Part shown: one piece after another, positions 17,935-25,418 of the stretch | Numbering within the stretch: position 1 is the stretch's first letter | How the letters are laid out: each line of letters opens with the position of its first letter | Assembly (NCBI GenBank): GCA_965220035.1 | Contig: CBDCPC010000002.1 | Coordinates: 1,021,821 to 1,085,820 of the forward strand | Direction of reading: 5' to 3' | DNA length: 64,000 nucleotides | Source: Acidimicrobiales bacterium | GTDB taxonomy: Bacteria > Actinomycetota > Acidimicrobiia > Acidimicrobiales > CATQHL01 | Program-made: the position numbers and the translations under genes | Notes under the pieces: generated by a model | Databases searched by the model: none | The model's input: the letters and a program-made list of their open reading frames with translations, nothing else | Told to the model about the DNA's origin: nothing

Positions 17935-19167
17935 ATGACAGAACTCGGCCGGCGCGCCAAGGCGGTCGCGCCGGTGCTGGCCGCCACGCCGACGGAGGTC
18001 AAGAACGAGGCACTCCGGGCCGCGGCGGCGGAGTTGCTGGCCGGTAGCGACGACCTGCTGGCGGCCAACGAGGGCGATCTTGCCGCGGCAAAGGAGGCCG
18101 GCATCTCGTCGACGCTGCTCGACCGCCTGCGCCTCACACCGGCGCGTATCTCCGGCATGGCCGGCGGCCTGCGCCAAGTGGCCGAACTACCGGACCCCGT
18201 GGGCGTGGTCACGTCCAGCGACGTACGCCCCAACGGCCTGCGCATCCAGCAGGTACGGGTGCCTCTCGGCGTCGTCGCGATCGTGTACGAGAGCAGACCC
18301 AACGTCACCAGCGACGCCGCCGGCCTGTGCCTCAAGTCGGGCAACGTGGCCTTCCTCCGCGGCTCCTCGATGGCCATCCGCTCCAACAAGGTGATCGCCG
18401 AGGCCCTGCGCCGCGCCTACGTCGCCCACGGCGTGCCGGCGGACGCCCTTGTCCTCGTGACCGACACCAGCCGGGAGGCGGCGGTGGAGTTCATGCGCCT
18501 CACCGGTTACGTGGACTGCCTGATCCCCCGTGGCGGGCCCGCCCTCATCCGCTCGATCCTGGAGAACGCCACCGTGCCGTTCATCTTGGACGGCGACGGC
18601 AACTGCCACGTGTTCGTGGACCGCACCGCTGACCTGGACATGGCCGAGTCGATCGTGGTGAACGGCAAGACCCAGCGCCCCTCGGTGTGCAACGCCACGG
18701 AGTCGCTGGTCGTGCACACCGCCGTGGCGGCGGACTTCCTGCCGAGACTGGTCCGGGCGATGCCCACGGTGGAGATGGTCGGCGACGACGCCTCCCGAGC
18801 GCTCGCGCCAAGCATCGAGGTGGCCAGCGAGGCCGACTACGCGACCGAGTTCCTGGACTACAAGCTGTCGGTGCGCGTCGTGGACTCGGTCGATGCGGCC
18901 ATCGACCACGTCAACCGGTACGGCACGGGGCACTCGGAGGTGATCGTGACGTCCGACGAGGCCGCCGCCGGGCGCTTCTGCGCCGAAGTCGACGCCGCCG
19001 CCGTGCTCGTGAACGCCTCGAGCCGGTTCGTCGACGGCGAGGAGATGGGCTACGGCGCCGAGATCGGCATCAGTACCCAGAAGCTGCACGTCCGCGGGCC
19101 GATGGGCCTCGTGCACCTCACCGCCATCAAGAACGTCATCCGCGGCGACGGGCAGATCCGCGGCTAG
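17935..19167 (+). CDS. proA: Gamma-glutamyl phosphate reductase
   Basis: The ALDH fold and catalytic region read ..LIPRGGPALIRSILENATVPFILDGDGNCHVFVD.. The start is at ATG 17935 (MTELGRRAKA..), downstream of the ORF maximum 17875. Confidence 0.9.
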   Translation: MTELGRRAKAVAPVLAATPTEVKNEALRAAAAELLAGSDDLLAANEGDLAAAKEAGISSTLLDRLRLTPARISGMAGGLRQVAELPDPVGVVTSSDVRPNGLRIQQVRVPLGVVAIVYESRPNVTSDAAGLCLKSGNVAFLRGSSMAIRSNKVIAEALRRAYVAHGVPADALVLVTDTSREAAVEFMRLTGYVDCLIPRGGPALIRSILENATVPFILDGDGNCHVFVDRTADLDMAESIVVNGKTQRPSVCNATESLVVHTAVAADFLPRLVRAMPTVEMVGDDASRALAPSIEVASEADYATEFLDYKLSVRVVDSVDAAIDHVNRYGTGHSEVIVTSDEAAAGRFCAEVDAAAVLVNASSRFVDGEEMGYGAEIGISTQKLHVRGPMGLVHLTAIKNVIRGDGQIRG

Positions 19168-19169
19168 CG

Positions 19170-19278
19170 GTCGGGAAACTCCGGTCACCATCCGATTCGG
19201 TCGGGACCCCGGAGGTTGCAGGTTCGAACCCAGCCCGCTATGTCGGGAAACTCCGGTCACCATCCGATTCGGTCGGGA
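19170..19278. repeat. Perfect 37-bp direct repeat x2 flanking a 35-bp spacer
   Basis: GTCGGGAAACTCCGGTCACCATCCGATTCGGTCGGGA occurs at 19170-19206 and 19242-19278, 37/37 identical. The spacer CCCCGGAGGTTGCAGGTTCGAACCCAGCCCGCTAT contains a GGTTCGAACC palindrome resembling a tRNA T-arm. The element begins 3 nt after the proA stop. Confidence 0.6.
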
Positions 19279-19352
19279 GCGGCCTCGAGCGCCTGGCCGT
19301 GTCGGCCGGCTGCTGGGCGGCCGCTGCGTCAGACGACGAGCCGCCTGTCCAC

Positions 19353-19400
19353 GTCATTCCGGCGACTTGCCTTCCCTGTCATTCCGGCGTAGGCCGGAAT
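19353..19400. repeat. GTCATTCCGGCG duplicated motif ending in a perfect hairpin ATTCCGGC-GTAG-GCCGGAAT (bidirectional terminator-like)
   Basis: Two copies of GTCATTCCGGCG lie at 19353-64 and 19378-89. The second forms an 8-bp stem with a 4-nt loop at 19381-19400, between convergent genes. The same stem (ATTCCGGC-CTCC-GCCGGAAT) recurs at 32760-32779 between the convergent flotillin and antiporter genes. Confidence 0.5.
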
Positions 19401-19437
19401 CCACTACCCAGCAGGTCCGATCCGGACTCCCGGATGA

Positions 19438-19665
19438 TTACTCAGCCGCCTCGCAGGGCCGGTCACTCTCCCGGAACGGGGGCGGGATGAGATCCTCGTA
19501 CATGGCGGGGTCGGGGGCGACGACCGCCACCTTGCCGTTGCGCCGTGTGACCACACCCGTGCCGGTCTGATATGCCACTAGGTGCGCATCCTTGGCCGCC
19601 AAGATCAGCGAGCGCATCACCGCCTCACTGAAGTCCTCGCCGCGCAGAACCCGCGGGGCGTCCAC
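19438..19665 (-). CDS. Small Phd/YefM-like putative antitoxin (start uncertain)
   Basis: The C-terminal ..GVVTRRNGKVAVVAPDPAMYEDL.. resembles the Phd/YefM core (ITRRGxPVAVxVSxxxYExL). Upstream, ..LRGEDFSEAV.. resembles the Phd N-terminus (ARGNLSEV). ATG 19617 has a GAGG RBS; an alternative GTG start at 19665 or 19650 would overlap the upstream P-loop gene. Confidence 0.35.
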   Translation of the reverse strand: MDAPRVLRGEDFSEAVMRSLILAAKDAHLVAYQTGTGVVTRRNGKVAVVAPDPAMYEDLIPPPFRESDRPCEAAE

Positions 19666-19717
19666 AGCATCGGGACCTCTGGTCACAAGTGTCCCTCCAC
19701 TTGGGGTATCCCCGCGT

Positions 19718-20281
19718 TCAGGAGCGGCGCGACCAGCGTCGGCACGTTCTCGCTCGATCATGGTTTTCGCCCTGCTCGAGCAACACCGGCACCGGACCGG
19801 TGTTGTCGTACAGCCTCCACTCATCGACTCTAGCGGCGTAGTGCTCGCGCAGGTTCCGCAGGCCGGCCACGAAGCGCCTGCGAATCACATCCTCGGACAC
19901 CCGATGCCCGCCTTGCCGAACACGCGCGTCGACCCGGCGGACGGCCTCGTCCGCACCGTCGAGCGACAGGAACACCAGCATCACCCGGTAGCCGTCGAGC
20001 CGCCATCGCTCGATCCGCCTGAGGTAACCACGGCCCGACAACGTGGTCTCGAACGCGAAGCTCCGGCCCGCTGCGGCCAAGCGATCGATCTCGGCGAGCA
20101 TCAGGCGGCCGGCCGCCACCCCGACGCCTGCCCCCCGGTCGAGCGGTGAGAGCCCCCCGGCGATGAGGTCGGCGTTGACGAAGTGCAGACCCGGCGCCTC
20201 GCCGCTCAGATGCCGCATCGCGAACGTGGTCTTGCCGGCGCCGTTGGGCCCCGCGATCACGATGATCTGCTTATCTGCCAT
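19718..20281 (-). CDS. Zeta-toxin/AAA_33-like P-loop kinase family protein
   Basis: 187 aa, MADKQIIVIAGPNGAGKTTFA (Walker A) ... the kinase-like fold family that includes zeta toxins. Confidence 0.6.
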   Translation of the reverse strand: MADKQIIVIAGPNGAGKTTFAMRHLSGEAPGLHFVNADLIAGGLSPLDRGAGVGVAAGRLMLAEIDRLAAAGRSFAFETTLSGRGYLRRIERWRLDGYRVMLVFLSLDGADEAVRRVDARVRQGGHRVSEDVIRRRFVAGLRNLREHYAARVDEWRLYDNTGPVPVLLEQGENHDRARTCRRWSRRS

Positions 20282-20619
20282 GCACTATCCCGGACGGGGC
20301 GACCCGGAGTCGAGAACGGGGCGGTCCGGTTCATGCTACGGGCGCGAGAGCGCCGTGGGCGACCGCTGGGGCAGGACAAGCCGCTGGACGGTGGGATCGG
20401 GATCCTGATCGGGTCAGGGGCAGACTCTCCGCGGGTCGTCCGCTGCGGTGATGGAGTGCGCCGCGACCTGAACGTGGGGGCGCGATGTGCGGGACCACCG
20501 CCCTTTGCGGTGCCCCGGGCGCGCGACAGACCGCGCGCTCGTCGCGGGAGTGCTAACTTGCTGCACCGCTGAACTGTTCGCGCCGGGTCTTGGTCGGATC
20601 CGGACTGGAGGCTCTCACA

Positions 20620-21952
20620 ATGTCCACAAAGACCCCCCCCCGCAGATGCCTTTGAACTGAAACTCACACGGCGCCGCCGCCGGCGGCGGCGCGCCGGTGC
20701 GGCGATCGCGGCCGTCCTGATGGTGACCACCGGCGTCTTCGCGACCACAGCAGCCACCGGTCAGGACACCACGGACAGTTCGGGCGAGGTGCGCATCATC
20801 GCTCGCAAACTCGAGAGCGGGCGCATCGAGTTCGGCCTCCAGCAACGCCAAGCCGACGACACCTGGGGCGCCCGCCAACTCCCCCGCGTCCGCTTCTTCC
20901 CCACCACCGCCCGCACCGGACGCTGGCTCGCCAGCTCCCCCCTCGCATTGACCGCCGGCGAGGTGCGCATCATCGCTCGCAAGCTCGAAAACGGCAAGGT
21001 CGAGTTCGGCCTCCAGCAACGCCAAGCCGATGATTCCTGGAGCGACCGCCAACTGCCCCGGGTCCGCTTCTTCCCCACCACCGCCCGCGTCGGACGCTGG
21101 CTCGCAAGCTCCCCACTCACCCTCACCGCGCCCGGAGCAACCCGCCAATACACCGCCAGCACCGCCGCCGACACCTACACGTGCACACTGAGGGGCGGCG
21201 ACACGCTCACCTGTGTCGGCCAGAGCCTGCTCGCGGACCCCCAAGCGCCCGCCGGTCCGTACACCGCTCTCGCCTCCGGCAACGCCCACGTGTGCGGGCT
21301 ACGCACGGCCGGCACCATCACCTGCTGGGGCGGCAACTGGGAAGGGCAGACCGACGCGCCCGCCGGGCGCTACACCGCCATTAGCGCCGGCAACTACCAC
21401 ACATGCGCGCTGCGCACCGACGGCGCCGTCACCTGCTGGGGCGAGAACAGTGCCGGGCAGACCGAGTCGCCCGCCGGGCAGTACACGGCAATTGCCGCCG
21501 GCGCAGGCCATGCGTGCGGGCTGCGCAACGACGGCGCCGTCACCTGCTGGGGCGATGCGGTCTACGGGGCGACCGACGTGCCCGCCGGGCGCTACACCGC
21601 GATCGCCGGCGGCGTACACGACGTCTGCGGGCTGCGCGCCGATAGCACCATCACCTGCTGGGGCAGCCGCTGGACCGGTAGTGGTGGCATGGACGACATG
21701 GGCGGGCCTCCCGCCGGGCAGTACACCGCCATCAGCACCGGCAACAACCACACGTGCGCGCTGCGCACCGACAGCGGTGTCACGTGTTGGGGCGAAGACT
21801 TCACCGGGGCGACGTGGGTGCCCGCCGGGAGCTACGTTGCAGTCGCCGCCGGCGGCACTCACACGTGCGCACTGCGCACCGACGACACCCTCACGTGCTG
21901 GGGTGACGAGTACGTCGGCGGACCACCACCGGTGGACGCGCCATCCGGGTAG
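20620..21952 (+). CDS. Secreted RCC1-repeat β-propeller protein with two N-terminal ~58-aa repeat domains; apparent frameshift at a C9 tract
   Basis: The body (ORF from ATG 20720) has about 7 RCC1-like blades (..YTAISAGNYHTCALRTDGAVTCWG.. repeated). Upstream ATG 20620 gives MSTKTPP, then a C9 run (20633-41) shifts frame. With one fewer C the reading continues ADAFELKLTRRRRRRRRAGAAIAAVLMVTTGVFATTAATG (a signal-peptide-like N-terminus) in frame with the body. Confidence 0.6.
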
Positions 21953-22123
21953 ACGCCAGGTGGCCGAACGGCTCCTCGTCCCCGGAAGGGACTACGGCGG
22001 GTTGCCGTGGTCGGGGGATTCCTCGCGGTCGTGGGCTGTCACCACCGCCCCGTCGTGGCGGGCGGGCGGTGCACACCCGGCCGCGCCGAACCGCTTCGCG
22101 GCGCACCGAGGTCACCGGCGCCG

Positions 22124-23455
22124 GTGAGGGGTGGCACGGCTCGGCGCCTGCGGACACTTGCAGTGGTCCTGGCCTGCGTGGCCGGTGTCCTCGCCGGGCC
22201 GGCCGCCGTGGCGCAGACCGGCGACGGGTGGCGCATTCTGGCCATGCCTCTCGCGGACGGTCGCGTCGAGGTGGCGTTGCAGCAACGCGACGGCGGCGGC
22301 GAGTGGAGCGAGCGGATCCTGCCCCAGCAGCGGTTCGTGGCCCCGGACACCCCGGTCGGGCGCTGGCAGGCCGGCTTACCGGTCACGATCCGCAGCAGCG
22401 GCGGAGTGCGGGACTTGTGCATCGCGGCGCGCCGCCTCGCCGGCGGGGGCGTGGAGTTGGCATTGCAGCAGCGCCACGGCGGCGGCGAGTGGGGCGAGCG
22501 GATCCTGCCCCAGCAGCGGTTCGTGGCCGCCGACGCCCCGGTTGGGCGCTGGCTGGCGAGTTCTCCGGTCGCCGTCGCGGGACCGGTGACCACCACCGCC
22601 GGCGATCCGCCCGAGGGATCCGCCGGCGGCACTCCCCGCGGCCTGCTCACCCCGACCGGCGTTCCGGTCGCCGTCATCGAGCGGACAGGCTGCGGCTACC
22701 TGGTGCGCGCTCCGTGGGGCGACACCGTCGAGATCGCCACCGGCGAACCCATCGAGGGCGTGCGGGTCGTGATCGACCCGGGTCACGGCGGCCGCTGGGA
22801 GTCCGGCGCGGTCGGCGGCAACGGCCTTGCCGAACGCGACCTGAACCTCACGCTCGGCCGCGCCGTCGTCGCCGAACTCGCCGGTCGCGGCATCGGCGCG
22901 GTGCTGACCCGCACCGGGGACTACGGGACGCCGCTGGCGGTGCGCGCCGCCTTCGCTGACGCGCTGGGAGTCGACGCGCTCATCTCCATCCACCACAACG
23001 CGCCCACGACAACGCTGAGCGACACCCCCGGCACCGAGTTGTACGTCCAATCGACCTCCCCGGGCGCGCCGCGGGCATCCTCGGCGCGCCTCGGAGCCCT
23101 TCTCTACGAGGAGATCACCGCCGCGCTCACCCGCTTCGAAGGCATCCGCTGGTCCCGCCTACCCAACGCCGGCGTCCTGCGAGTGCTGTCCCCCTACGAC
23201 GGCGGCGACGTCTACGGCATGATCCGCCGACCCGCCACCCCCGCCGTCCTCGTCGAGTACGGCTACCTCTCCAACCCCGCCGAGGCCAGGCTGTTCGCCA
23301 CCGACGCATACATCCGCGCAGCCGCCACCGCCACCGCCGACGCCGTCGAGGCCTACCTCCACAGCGACCGCCAAGGCACCGGACACATCCACCGCCCACG
23401 CGTCTTCGACCCGGCCACGCCACCCTTCAGCTACGACGAGTTCCCACTCGAATAG
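22124..23455 (+). CDS. N-acetylmuramoyl-L-alanine amidase (Amidase_3) with signal peptide and two N-terminal ~58-aa repeat domains
   Basis: A GTG start gives RRLRTLAVVLACVAGVLAGPAAVAQT (signal peptide). The amidase_3 core reads ..VVIDPGHGGRWESGAVG..DLNLTLGRAV.. ..DALISIHHNA.. The N-terminal repeats (..GRVEVALQQRDGGGEWSERILPQQRFVAPDTPVGRWQAG..) are homologous to the repeats in the adjacent RCC1 protein. Confidence 0.8.
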   Translation: MRGGTARRLRTLAVVLACVAGVLAGPAAVAQTGDGWRILAMPLADGRVEVALQQRDGGGEWSERILPQQRFVAPDTPVGRWQAGLPVTIRSSGGVRDLCIAARRLAGGGVELALQQRHGGGEWGERILPQQRFVAADAPVGRWLASSPVAVAGPVTTTAGDPPEGSAGGTPRGLLTPTGVPVAVIERTGCGYLVRAPWGDTVEIATGEPIEGVRVVIDPGHGGRWESGAVGGNGLAERDLNLTLGRAVVAELAGRGIGAVLTRTGDYGTPLAVRAAFADALGVDALISIHHNAPTTTLSDTPGTELYVQSTSPGAPRASSARLGALLYEEITAALTRFEGIRWSRLPNAGVLRVLSPYDGGDVYGMIRRPATPAVLVEYGYLSNPAEARLFATDAYIRAAATATADAVEAYLHSDRQGTGHIHRPRVFDPATPPFSYDEFPLE

Positions 23456-23650
23456 CCGCCGCGGCAGTGCATCCTGGTCGCCGGAGCGGGTCCGGGGCCG
23501 TGCCTGATTCCAGCCTCCACCGTCCCGGGCCGTGGGGCCGCGCCTCGGGGTGGGTCATGCGGATCGGACGCAACCTGGTTCCAGTTGCCACCGTCGCGGT
23601 ACGGCCGGCTGGACGGGGCGGCGGAGTTCCGGCGGCAGCGCTCCGAGGCC

Positions 23651-23955
23651 ACTGTCACACCCCCCTCGTAACATCACAAACATGGCAGCGGAAGCACCCC
23701 ACGGGTCCGGATCCCGGCCCGCCTGCCCGGCAATCCCCAACCCCACCGCCGGCACGACCCGCACCCGCCGAACCGCCCCCGGAACACTGTCACACCCCCC
23801 TCGTAACATCACCGTCATGGAGCAGGTAGTGCCCGAAGGACCGGATCAGCGACCGGCGACGCCGACAGCGCCGGAGGGTGTCGCCGCCGGGATGCGCGCC
23901 GGGAGTGACGCTCGGAGAACGCTGTCACACCCCCTTCGTAGCATCACCGTCATGG
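23651..23955 (+). promoter_or_regulatory. Triplicated 34-bp motif CTGTCACACCCCCCTCGTAACATCAC(N3)CATGG at ~135-bp spacing
   Basis: Copies at 23651-85, 23786-820 and 23922-55 are nearly identical; the third has one fewer C. Each contains TAACAT (or TAGCAT) 7 nt before an ATG that is in frame with the DUF222 ORF. This is the geometry of leaderless mycobacterial-type promoters. Confidence 0.5.
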
Positions 23956-25418
23956 AACGCGCGGACATGCACGAAGCGGCACCGGTGTCGACGATCGATG
24001 CGGGTTACTTGGGCTCCGGGCAGGCCTCAGGAGGTGTCATGGCCGAGCGCGGTACTGGCCGCGGCAACGAGGATCGCAGGGGTCCGGACCTCCCACTGGG
24101 AGCGTTGGCGGTCCTGGGGAGCAACGCGGATGCCCTCGATGCGGAGGGCCTGGGCGGGTTCCTGGCGGCAGTGCGAGCGGTGCGGTCGTGGGTGGACGCG
24201 CGGGAGGCCGCGGCGCTGGCGGTGGCAACTCGCCGCGGTGTTGCCGCAGCGGCGGGCGCGGCGGACACGGCGGCCTGGTTGAGCGGGCACACCGGTGTCG
24301 GCCGCCGGGAGGCGCTGGCGCGAACGCGCACCGCGTCAGGTCTGGAGGACCTGCCCGAGGTGGCTGAGGCTCTCGCCGATGGGCGCATCACCCGCGGGCA
24401 CGTGCAGGCGCTGGCGACCTATGCGGCTCCCGATGGCGTGGACCTGAGTGTCGATCCGGACTTGGACTTCCCCGATGCGGCGCGTGAGGCGGCCCGCCGG
24501 GTGGCCCTGGCGGTGCGCGGGCGGCAGGAGAAGTTGATCGCCGCCGCGGAGGCCATGAGCGTCGACGCCTTCCGGCGGTTCCTGCGCCGCTGGGCGGACC
24601 GCGCCGCGGGCGACGATGGCGCCGGGCGGGACGTGGCGCAGCGACGGCGGCGCAGCGTCACCACATTCACCACCGACGACGGCCTGTGCGGCGTGCGCGG
24701 CCTGCTACCACCCGATCAGTTCGCGTTCTTCGAGAACGAACTGCGGCGCCTGGCCGAGGCCCGCTGGCGTGCCGACCACCCCGACGCCGACAACGTGCCC
24801 GCCAAGGAGCTGACCTGCCCCCAGCGCAACGCCGACGCCCTGGTGGACATGGCGCGCCGCAGCCGCCAACTCGGCGACAACGCCGACGAACCGCTCGGCT
24901 CACACGTCGACGTGATGGTCCTCATCGACCACGAGACCCTCACCGGGGGCTTCCACGACGACACTCGTTGCGAACTCGACGACACGACGCCCCTGTCGCC
25001 GGCGGCGGCGCGACGCCTGCTGTGCGACGCCGATGTCCTCACCGCCATCCGTCACCGCAAGCCCTTCAAGCTCGACCTGGGCTACAGCCGGCGGGCCGCC
25101 AACCGCAAGATCCGCAGAGCCCTCATCGCCCGCGACCGCACCTGCACCGCTCCCGGATGTGAGCGGCCCCACTGGATGTGCGAGATCCACCACATCGTGC
25201 CCTGGGTCGAAGGGGGACGCACCGACCTGGACAACCTCACTCTCCTCTGCAGCCGCCATCACCACATCCACCACGCCAACGAGGCACGGAAGATCGAGGG
25301 GGCACGCCGAGCCGACGGCAACCGCACGACAACCGACACAACCGATCCCCCACCCGACCGAAGTCCCGCCCGCGACGGGCCGGACCGCTCGATTGGCATT
25401 GAGCCCTGCGCACACTGA
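23952..25418 (+). CDS. DUF222 domain protein with C-terminal HNH endonuclease (REP13E12-type)
   Basis: The N-terminal DUF222-like region reads (..LGALAVLGSNADALDAEGLGGFLAAVRAVRSWVDAREAAALAV..). The C-terminal HNH motif reads (..RTCTAPGCERPHWMCEIHHIVPWVEGGRTDLDNLTLLCSRHHHIHH). The start was taken at the ATG of the third repeat unit; the maximal ORF begins at 23532. Confidence 0.8.
   Translation: MERADMHEAAPVSTIDAGYLGSGQASGGVMAERGTGRGNEDRRGPDLPLGALAVLGSNADALDAEGLGGFLAAVRAVRSWVDAREAAALAVATRRGVAAAAGAADTAAWLSGHTGVGRREALARTRTASGLEDLPEVAEALADGRITRGHVQALATYAAPDGVDLSVDPDLDFPDAAREAARRVALAVRGRQEKLIAAAEAMSVDAFRRFLRRWADRAAGDDGAGRDVAQRRRRSVTTFTTDDGLCGVRGLLPPDQFAFFENELRRLAEARWRADHPDADNVPAKELTCPQRNADALVDMARRSRQLGDNADEPLGSHVDVMVLIDHETLTGGFHDDTRCELDDTTPLSPAAARRLLCDADVLTAIRHRKPFKLDLGYSRRAANRKIRRALIARDRTCTAPGCERPHWMCEIHHIVPWVEGGRTDLDNLTLLCSRHHHIHHANEARKIEGARRADGNRTTTDTTDPPPDRSPARDGPDRSIGIEPCAH

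Follow-up and report, generated by a model that had tools for sequence, protein, structure and literature searches.

The question raised by this locus is why two neighbouring genes of an Acidimicrobiales bacterium, one coding for an RCC1-like beta-propeller protein and the other for an N-acetylmuramoyl-L-alanine amidase, carry the same tandemly repeated domain, and what this domain may do for two such different proteins. Both genes are located on contig CBDCPC010000002.1, within a stretch of 64 kb which is called the window here and comes from an Acidimicrobiia-like genome of ~70% G+C. Our study has shown that the repeat belongs to a large family of secreted proteins, and on balance its role is considered to be, rather more probably than any other single role, the non-covalent retention of these proteins in the cell envelope. 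The two genes are open reading frames (ORFs) of the plus strand with 54 nt between them, the RCC1 gene lying first, and the following features were assigned to them:

20720-21952, plus strand: RCC1-like propeller protein, 410 aa as called (ORF list; Pfam RCC1_2, E=9e-39)
20783-20956, plus strand: first repeat copy of the RCC1 protein (hmmsearch, 113.8 bits)
20957-21130, plus strand: second repeat copy of the RCC1 protein, abutting the first (hmmsearch, 121.0 bits)
21131-21949, plus strand: short linker, then seven-bladed RCC1-like beta-propeller (Pfam RCC1_2, WD40_RLD)
22007-23455, plus strand: N-acetylmuramoyl-L-alanine amidase gene, longest ORF, 482 aa (Pfam)
22226-22396, plus strand: first repeat copy of the amidase, aa 74-130 (hmmsearch, 114.2 bits)
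22409-22582, plus strand: second repeat copy of the amidase, aa 135-192 (hmmsearch, 113.0 bits)
22766-23350, plus strand: Amidase_3 catalytic domain, aa 254-448 (Pfam PF01520, E=1.9e-32)

The repeat unit was found to be 57-61 aa long and to be present in two tandem copies in each of the two proteins. The copies of the RCC1 protein share 86% identity, in protein and DNA alike, those of the amidase share 63%, and copies taken across the two proteins share 39-47%. A preliminary description of the locus, made from the sequence alone, had proposed a tandem domain of about 58 aa common to both proteins, and the repeat sequences which it quoted are present in the translations. The proposal is confirmed by the BLASTP match between the two N-termini (E=8e-31) and by 21 invariant columns common to the four copies. 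The similarity also holds under profile alignment, as a hidden Markov model (HMM) of the four copies gave 113-121 bits per copy and i-Evalues of 6e-37 to 2e-34 against the six-frame translation of the window, in which no further ORF was matched.

The repeat was compared with Pfam-A (2025 copy), NCBIfam 20.0 and the PDB, the last by sequence and by fold. At E≤1 the repeats of neither window protein were covered by a model of Pfam or NCBIfam, and hmmscan of ten short homologues at E≤10 returned only unrelated matches at chance level. Among the Pfam profiles of wall-binding and related modules, no match was obtained with LysM, SLH, PG_binding_1-4, the SH3b types, CWB1/CWB2, SPOR, ChW, CW_7, WxL or PASTA, in agreement with the earlier remark that the pattern is not PG_binding_1, SH3b, LysM or PASTA. 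AMIN (PF11741), which was looked for as a profile match or as a fold shared with AmiC residues 1-~130, was not recognised in it by either route. Profiles of the single unit and of the pair gave only chance matches with PDB sequences (E 0.3-0.9), and no solved structural relative was found in the PDB by sequence or by fold. An explanation by an already named domain was rejected on the Pfam-A, NCBIfam and PDB profile results. In the literature search no description of the module was found, including as a shared N-terminal module of the eukaryotic-like proteins of sponge symbionts, which the literature sorts by their repeats. The family appears to be undescribed so far and is clearly a candidate for an entry of its own in Pfam/InterPro. 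Its general kind is already familiar, since targeting modules in repeated form are known from other modular proteins that are secreted.

The AlphaFold2 models of a single unit (predicted local distance difference test score, pLDDT, 92.5) and of the tandem pair (pLDDT 94.8; predicted template modelling score, pTM, 0.88) are both all-beta. The C-terminal 'RWL..SPL' tail of each unit is coil in the single-unit model and forms strands in the pair model. The best explanation of these predictions is an autonomously folding all-beta module, of which the working unit would usually be the tandem pair.

A family profile built from 40 units was searched against 1.84 billion representative proteins and matched 1,643 protein clusters at E≤1e-3, 1,300 at E≤1e-10 and 352 at E≤1e-30. 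The matches of an earlier search with a 59-aa profile were all ≤108 aa, mostly apparently short or truncated gene calls, and were not used for architectures. The family signature is xVRIxAR(R/K)LxDGRxE(F/V)(A/G)LQQRxxxxxWGxRxLPxxRFFPxxAxxGRWLxSSP, to which the four window copies conform with the scores given above. Across 504 units the most conserved positions are W49 (100%), E17 and R38 (99% each), R5 (96%), A8 and P35 (95% each), G14 and W29 (94% each), S52 (93%) and Q21 (91%). Among the best 150 of the 1,643 clusters, 132 proteins have two copies, 13 have four, 4 have three and one has five. The two copies of the amidase homologues have a median identity of 49%, whereas in other architectures the copies are often near-identical (median 77%); this points to an ancient divergence in the amidases and to repeated recent duplication or homogenisation elsewhere, as far as can be read from the sequences. 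A short form of the unit, of ~50 aa and without the 'LQQRxxxxxW' hairpin tip (RIxARxLxDGRxEFxxxPxxGERILPxSRYFPxxxxxxRWLRS), was also seen in Dehalococcoidia/Chloroflexota (P0013, P0020, P0022, P0029, P0031 and others, and minus-strand ORFs of L031 and L033), sometimes at the C-terminus of RCC1 proteins.

The position of the module within its proteins is highly stereotyped. In the same best 150 it is N-terminal in 121, at the C-terminal end in 12 and internal in 2, the other 15 being short proteins made up almost entirely of the module. A strongly hydrophobic leader precedes the N-terminal module in 186 of 189 proteins, and the module begins at a median of 11 residues past this leader, typically behind an AxA-Q site. 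A cysteine near that site was present in only 11 of the 189, so these proteins are not considered to be lipoproteins. Seven of the 12 C-terminal cases were examined (P0164, P0167, P0213, P0271, P0273, P0280 and P0285); each of them starts with a signal peptide, their 2-4 copies end ≤~15 residues from the C-terminus, and no hydrophobic segment follows the copies. Giant cadherin/Calx-beta proteins are included among the C-terminal-module proteins.

The closeness to the leader could also be accounted for by a module without any binding function, which would serve as a rigid spacer close to the membrane, following a signal anchor that stays uncleaved, or as an intramolecular chaperone or pro-domain that is removed once the protein has been exported. 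The distance of ≤~11 residues from the hydrophobic leader in most proteins and the low-complexity linkers which follow the module in the binding proteins would suit such a role. However, the pairs and quadruplets at the C-terminus of proteins with their own signal peptide, and with no hydrophobic segment behind the copies, argue that the module is not just a spacer next to the membrane. The residues of surface type (R5, E17, W29, R38 and W49) are moreover conserved at 94-100%, and the AxA-Q endings are typical of cleaved signal peptides, and hence this explanation is regarded as quite unlikely.

Some of the carriers are proteins which have to remain with the cell. Among these is a Chloroflexota family of sugar ATP-binding cassette (ABC) substrate-binding proteins, in which exactly one module lies directly behind the leader in 99 of 103 homologues, the four without it being N-terminally truncated fragments. 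No lipobox cysteine was found in the leaders examined, and the single module sits where the binding proteins of monoderm bacteria normally carry a lipid anchor. In the Chloroflexota sugar-binding proteins of the Peripla_BP_4 type (L024, L026-L029, L031 and L033; P0316-P0418) one module copy stands between the leader and an acidic low-complexity linker. At L041, a locus of 13 kb, two Peripla_BP_4 module genes are arranged in tandem beside a pair of genes for copper amine oxidases; genes for an ABC permease or ATPase were not called there.

For the two window proteins the position depends on their signal peptides, which the preliminary description had assigned to both. The features concerned are:

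22130-22216, plus strand: amidase signal peptide GGTARRLRTLAVVLACVAGVLAGPAAVAQ, legible in the translation
20669-20764, plus strand: signal-peptide-like segment of the RCC1 protein RRRRRRRRAGAAIAAVLMVTTGVFATTAATGQ, read from the translation and lying partly upstream of ATG 20720
20633-20641, plus strand: run of 9 C which parts ATG 20620 from the RCC1 reading frame (sequence, translation)

The assignment is clear for the amidase, in which the signal peptide spans aa 42-70 (...RRLRTLAVVLACVAGVLAGPAAVAQ) and its n-region, h-region and AVAQ ending are all repeated in the L001 orthologue; the module pair thus clearly follows a signal peptide. The gene caller begins this protein at GTG 22163, giving 430 aa, and P0043 is 100% identical. 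For the RCC1 protein both the signal peptide and the position of the pair behind it stand only if a start-codon problem is resolved. Its frame is open from 20573 to 21952 and the first canonical in-frame start (ATG/GTG/TTG) is ATG 20720, where the gene caller also starts an identical 410-aa protein in an independent assembly. The n- and h-regions of the signal peptide are encoded in frame upstream of this ATG, and RCC1 homologues have equivalent leaders with the AxAQ ending, so the true start likely lies upstream of 20720. The start at 20620 given in the preliminary description is not borne out, as that ATG is in a different frame and would enter the RCC1 frame only with a run of 8 or 11 C. 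A separate low-coverage assembly, L036, in which the proteins of this region are 100% identical to those of the window, has 10 C and is also out of frame, while in L001 the ATG of the orthologue at the position equivalent to 20620 is in frame. A homopolymer length error of sequencing is the most economical reading of the 9-C run; alternatively, it could be a slippage-prone tract by which phase variation switches the export of the RCC1 protein on and off.

The module is combined with more than 15 unrelated partner domains, all of which are extracytoplasmic. Among 103 representatives, RCC1 is the commonest partner (22), followed by LRR (8), trypsin-like protease (6), CAP and SLH (4 each) and ankyrin (3), with PPC, PD40, fn3, Big and Amidase_3 as further partners. 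Amidase_3 is rare, being found in one of the 103; when the window amidase is compared with its 120 best homologues, 77 of these have the module pair. Cadherin, Calx-beta, Spondin_N and Glug/CARDB domains occur in longer proteins, and one RCC1 protein has 17 matched blades. In the genome loci LRR and RCC1 partners recur, and the loci of Dehalococcoidia add periplasmic sugar-binding proteins, Cu/Zn superoxide dismutase, PD40 propellers and LysM proteins, most of these with a single copy. Three module-RCC1 genes may follow each other in a row (L015); arrays of 2-3 consecutive genes of signal peptide, module pair or triplet and RCC1 propeller were seen in L015 (5506-12166) and L018 (1713-8202), and their sequences indicate a local expansion of the gene family.

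The carriers were surveyed in one genome per GTDB species with two strict peptide patterns, so that the taxonomic range obtained is a lower bound. All 35 loci were located in metagenome-assembled genomes (MAGs) of Acidimicrobiales/Acidimicrobiia or Dehalococcoidia/Chloroflexota or in one unclassified bin, and the named homologues also come from Acidimicrobiia and Chloroflexota MAGs. The actinobacterial scope first given to the repeat is therefore correct for the Acidimicrobiia and too narrow for the family, which is shared with the Chloroflexota. Several loci may be present per genome, as on one 3.3-Mb contig with six loci and at least 9 module ORF fragments. Two loci, L010 and L020, come from SB06xx bins, which are counted among sponge-associated genomes (PMC7883664), and at least some of the carrier genomes are thus sponge-derived.

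This origin brings in another explanation, in which the module is an outward adhesin or lectin that binds the host (sponge matrix glycans, collagen) or particles and not the bacterial envelope. The passengers of the module largely belong to the eukaryotic-like classes (ankyrin, LRR, fn3, cadherin) which are enriched in sponge symbionts (PMC11706023) and are presumed to mediate the interaction with the sponge, and carbohydrate-binding sites often contain Trp and Arg, both of which are conserved in the module. On the other hand, the binding proteins of ABC importers, Cu/Zn superoxide dismutase and the amidase act at the envelope of their own cell, where host attachment would be useless, and the fixed site right after the signal peptide is more anchor-like than expected for a distal adhesive tip. 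An adhesin is accordingly held to be improbable.

The charge of the module is distinctive. The unit has a median isoelectric point (pI) of 11.1 and a net charge of +2, whereas the remainder of the same proteins has a median pI of 4.76; such a contrast between a basic module and an acidic protein is typical of wall-binding modules. Strong basic charge suggests an anionic, non-protein ligand and so speaks against a further explanation, in which the module serves for docking between proteins or for self-assembly (on a surface receptor protein, in a surface-layer-like lattice or as a dimer) and retention is brought about by protein contacts. The even copy numbers and the paired units, which are predicted to complete each other's sheets, would fit docking, and it would work in Dehalococcoidia without peptidoglycan (PMC6306507). 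No conserved partner gene was found beside the module genes in the loci examined, however, and we give this explanation a low probability as well.

Retention in the cell envelope by non-covalent binding is thus the reading to which we incline, with somewhat more than even confidence. The responsible observations are the position behind the leader, the C-terminal cases, the extracytoplasmic partners, the charge, the copy number and the amidase context. The protein would be exported by the Sec pathway and its signal peptide cleaved, after which the basic module would bind non-covalently to a component of the producer's own envelope and keep the acidic passenger domain at the cell surface. The candidate ligands are peptidoglycan, an anionic polymer associated with the wall, the outer face of the membrane and a surface protein layer. 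The amidase would in this way have its Amidase_3 domain kept at or close to the substrate, and the RCC1 protein would have its propeller displayed on the surface. The two genes would share it as surface-retained products of the same organism and not as a co-acting pair. The envelope-targeting role suggested in the preliminary description is accordingly favoured by circumstantial evidence (position, partners, charge and copy number), while peptidoglycan as the ligand is not demonstrated. Peptidoglycan is an attractive ligand for the module of the amidase, and an anionic wall polymer, a surface protein layer or a membrane face is equally possible.

The module was also compared with known systems. 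SLH (PF00395) and CWB2 (PF04122) resemble the module in being tandem, N- or C-terminal on secreted proteins and combined with diverse passengers including amidases, but they share no sequence homology with it. In contrast to the module, which is all-beta and acts in twos, SLH is a helical domain that acts in threes, and the fold of CWB2 is alpha/beta. LysM (PF01476), SH3b, PG_binding_1, SPOR and WxL are likewise small, often tandem, often basic and found on peptidoglycan hydrolases or surface proteins, but none of their Pfam models matches the repeat; LysM and the module co-occur in Dehalococcoidia proteins (L025, L034) and are therefore distinct modules. AMIN, known from AmiB/AmiC-type Amidase_3 enzymes and PilQ secretins, is like the module an N-terminal, non-catalytic, all-beta domain before Amidase_3, is also found on unrelated envelope proteins and may be present in several copies. 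The ligand of AMIN is (septal) peptidoglycan, to which it targets the protein that carries it (PMC10653833), and SLH and CWB2 are non-covalent anchors of Gram-positive surface proteins to wall polymers (listed in PMC6403190). Amidase_3 enzymes usually carry wall-binding domains at this place (listed in PMC6403190), and in the amidases studied here the module occupies the slot otherwise used by AMIN, SLH, LysM, CWB2 or SH3b (compared through PMC6403190 and PMC10653833).

Some observations weigh against retention in the envelope, or against a particular form of it. SLH is present together with the module in 4 of the 103 representatives and LysM in some Dehalococcoidia proteins, where a second anchor would be redundant. 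The leader of the binding proteins might itself remain as an uncleaved membrane anchor, and the module would then be unneeded for retention. No relative was found in IMG/VR (two pattern sets), among INPHARED phages or among PLSDB plasmids, and consequently no phage endolysin with the module in IMG/VR or INPHARED; this is of little weight, as the phages of these hosts are barely sampled. Peptidoglycan as a universal ligand is doubtful, many carriers being Dehalococcoidia MAGs. SAR202 is presumably placed within the Dehalococcoidia in GTDB, and the carrier genomes may or may not belong to it. Sponge SAR202 genomes were reported to be without peptidoglycan synthesis genes (PMC6306507).

A bolder version, which we regard only as a tentative possibility, is that the module is a surface-display anchor exchanged horizontally between two unrelated sponge-symbiont phyla, represented by the Acidimicrobiia and the Chloroflexota/Dehalococcoidia. 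It would present eukaryotic-like repeat proteins (RCC1, LRR, ankyrin, cadherin) to the host, with a lineage-specific ligand other than peptidoglycan. If this is true, the module would be the missing display element, and a sequence marker, of the surface proteome of these uncultured symbionts.

If the module is an anchor, one signature of 60 residues would be enough to recognise the proteins retained on the surface of two abundant, uncultured groups; the module-bearing clusters, at least 1,643 in number, include eukaryotic-like repeat proteins, nutrient-binding proteins, superoxide dismutase and a wall amidase. A new family, for which no solved structural relative was found, would join the few anchors known to hold proteins non-covalently in the envelope. 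A tagged module pair could further be used as a reagent to label or fish for cells and to learn the make-up of their envelopes, including those of lineages in which peptidoglycan synthesis genes are reported to be missing.

The preliminary description had also proposed that the repeat links the propeller to peptidoglycan hydrolysis and had called for a check on the co-occurrence of the two genes. Their adjacency is clear in L001, where the two proteins have 73% and 76% identity and the genomic neighbourhood is different. L004 has the same gene order, but there the gene is only presumed to be RCC1 and the ORFs look disrupted. The adjacency is absent beside the 53-59% identical amidases of L023 and L037-L040. 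Hence it is confined to close relatives, and a conserved RCC1-amidase operon as a general association was rejected. Since the module is in addition promiscuous, with Amidase_3 as a rare passenger, the link to hydrolysis is unsupported. The module alone does not reveal the role of the RCC1 propeller.

The catalytic part of the amidase was matched by Amidase_3 (PF01520, MurNAc-LAA) with 113.1 bits against a cut-off of 27, over profile positions 1-173 of 174. In 120 homologues the motif residues of DPGHGG, E(R)DLNL, SIHHNA and EYGYLSN are ≥95% conserved, including the H of DPGHGG, the E of AERDLNL, the H of SIHHNA and the E of VEYGYLSN, which we take to be zinc ligands or catalytic residues as in other members of the family. 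PDB amidases (AmiA, CwlV, AmiC and others) align with the protein only from aa 249 onwards. Judging from its sequence, with the motifs conserved and the PDB matches beginning there, the enzyme appears to be intact, and the ~190 N-terminal residues which follow its signal peptide are not accounted for by these matches. Between the repeat module and the catalytic domain one more feature was identified:

22640-22756, plus strand: small conserved segment of the amidase, aa 212-250 (LLTPTGVPVAVIERTGxGYLVRxPxG...), occupancy 1.0 in 120 homologues

This segment directly precedes Amidase_3 and is separate from the module, as module-bearing and module-free homologues alike have it (120 of 120). It is matched by no Pfam model and could be an extension of the catalytic domain that is peculiar to this lineage.

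The propeller of the first gene was matched by RCC1_2 (PF13540) in five stretches with 130.7 bits against a cut-off of 22, and also by WD40_RLD (E=1e-17). Seven blades of the type 'YTA..G..H.C.LR.DG...CWG' are legible in its translation.

Two further features were observed around these genes. Between the amidase stop codon and a DUF222/HNH endonuclease gene, positions 23612-23956 hold three direct copies, exactly 135 bp apart, of a unit of ~75 nt with the core CTGTCACACCCCC(C/T)TCGTA(A/G)CATCAC..CATGG; an Rfam search of 19000-25000, which includes these copies, gave nothing at E≤0.01. A P-loop ORF on the minus strand (19718-20281, MADKQIIVIAGPNGAGKTTF...) lies a short way upstream of the RCC1 gene and adjoins a small ORF; from its sequence it looks like a kinase of the zeta-toxin/AAA type, and it is frameshifted in the L036 assembly.

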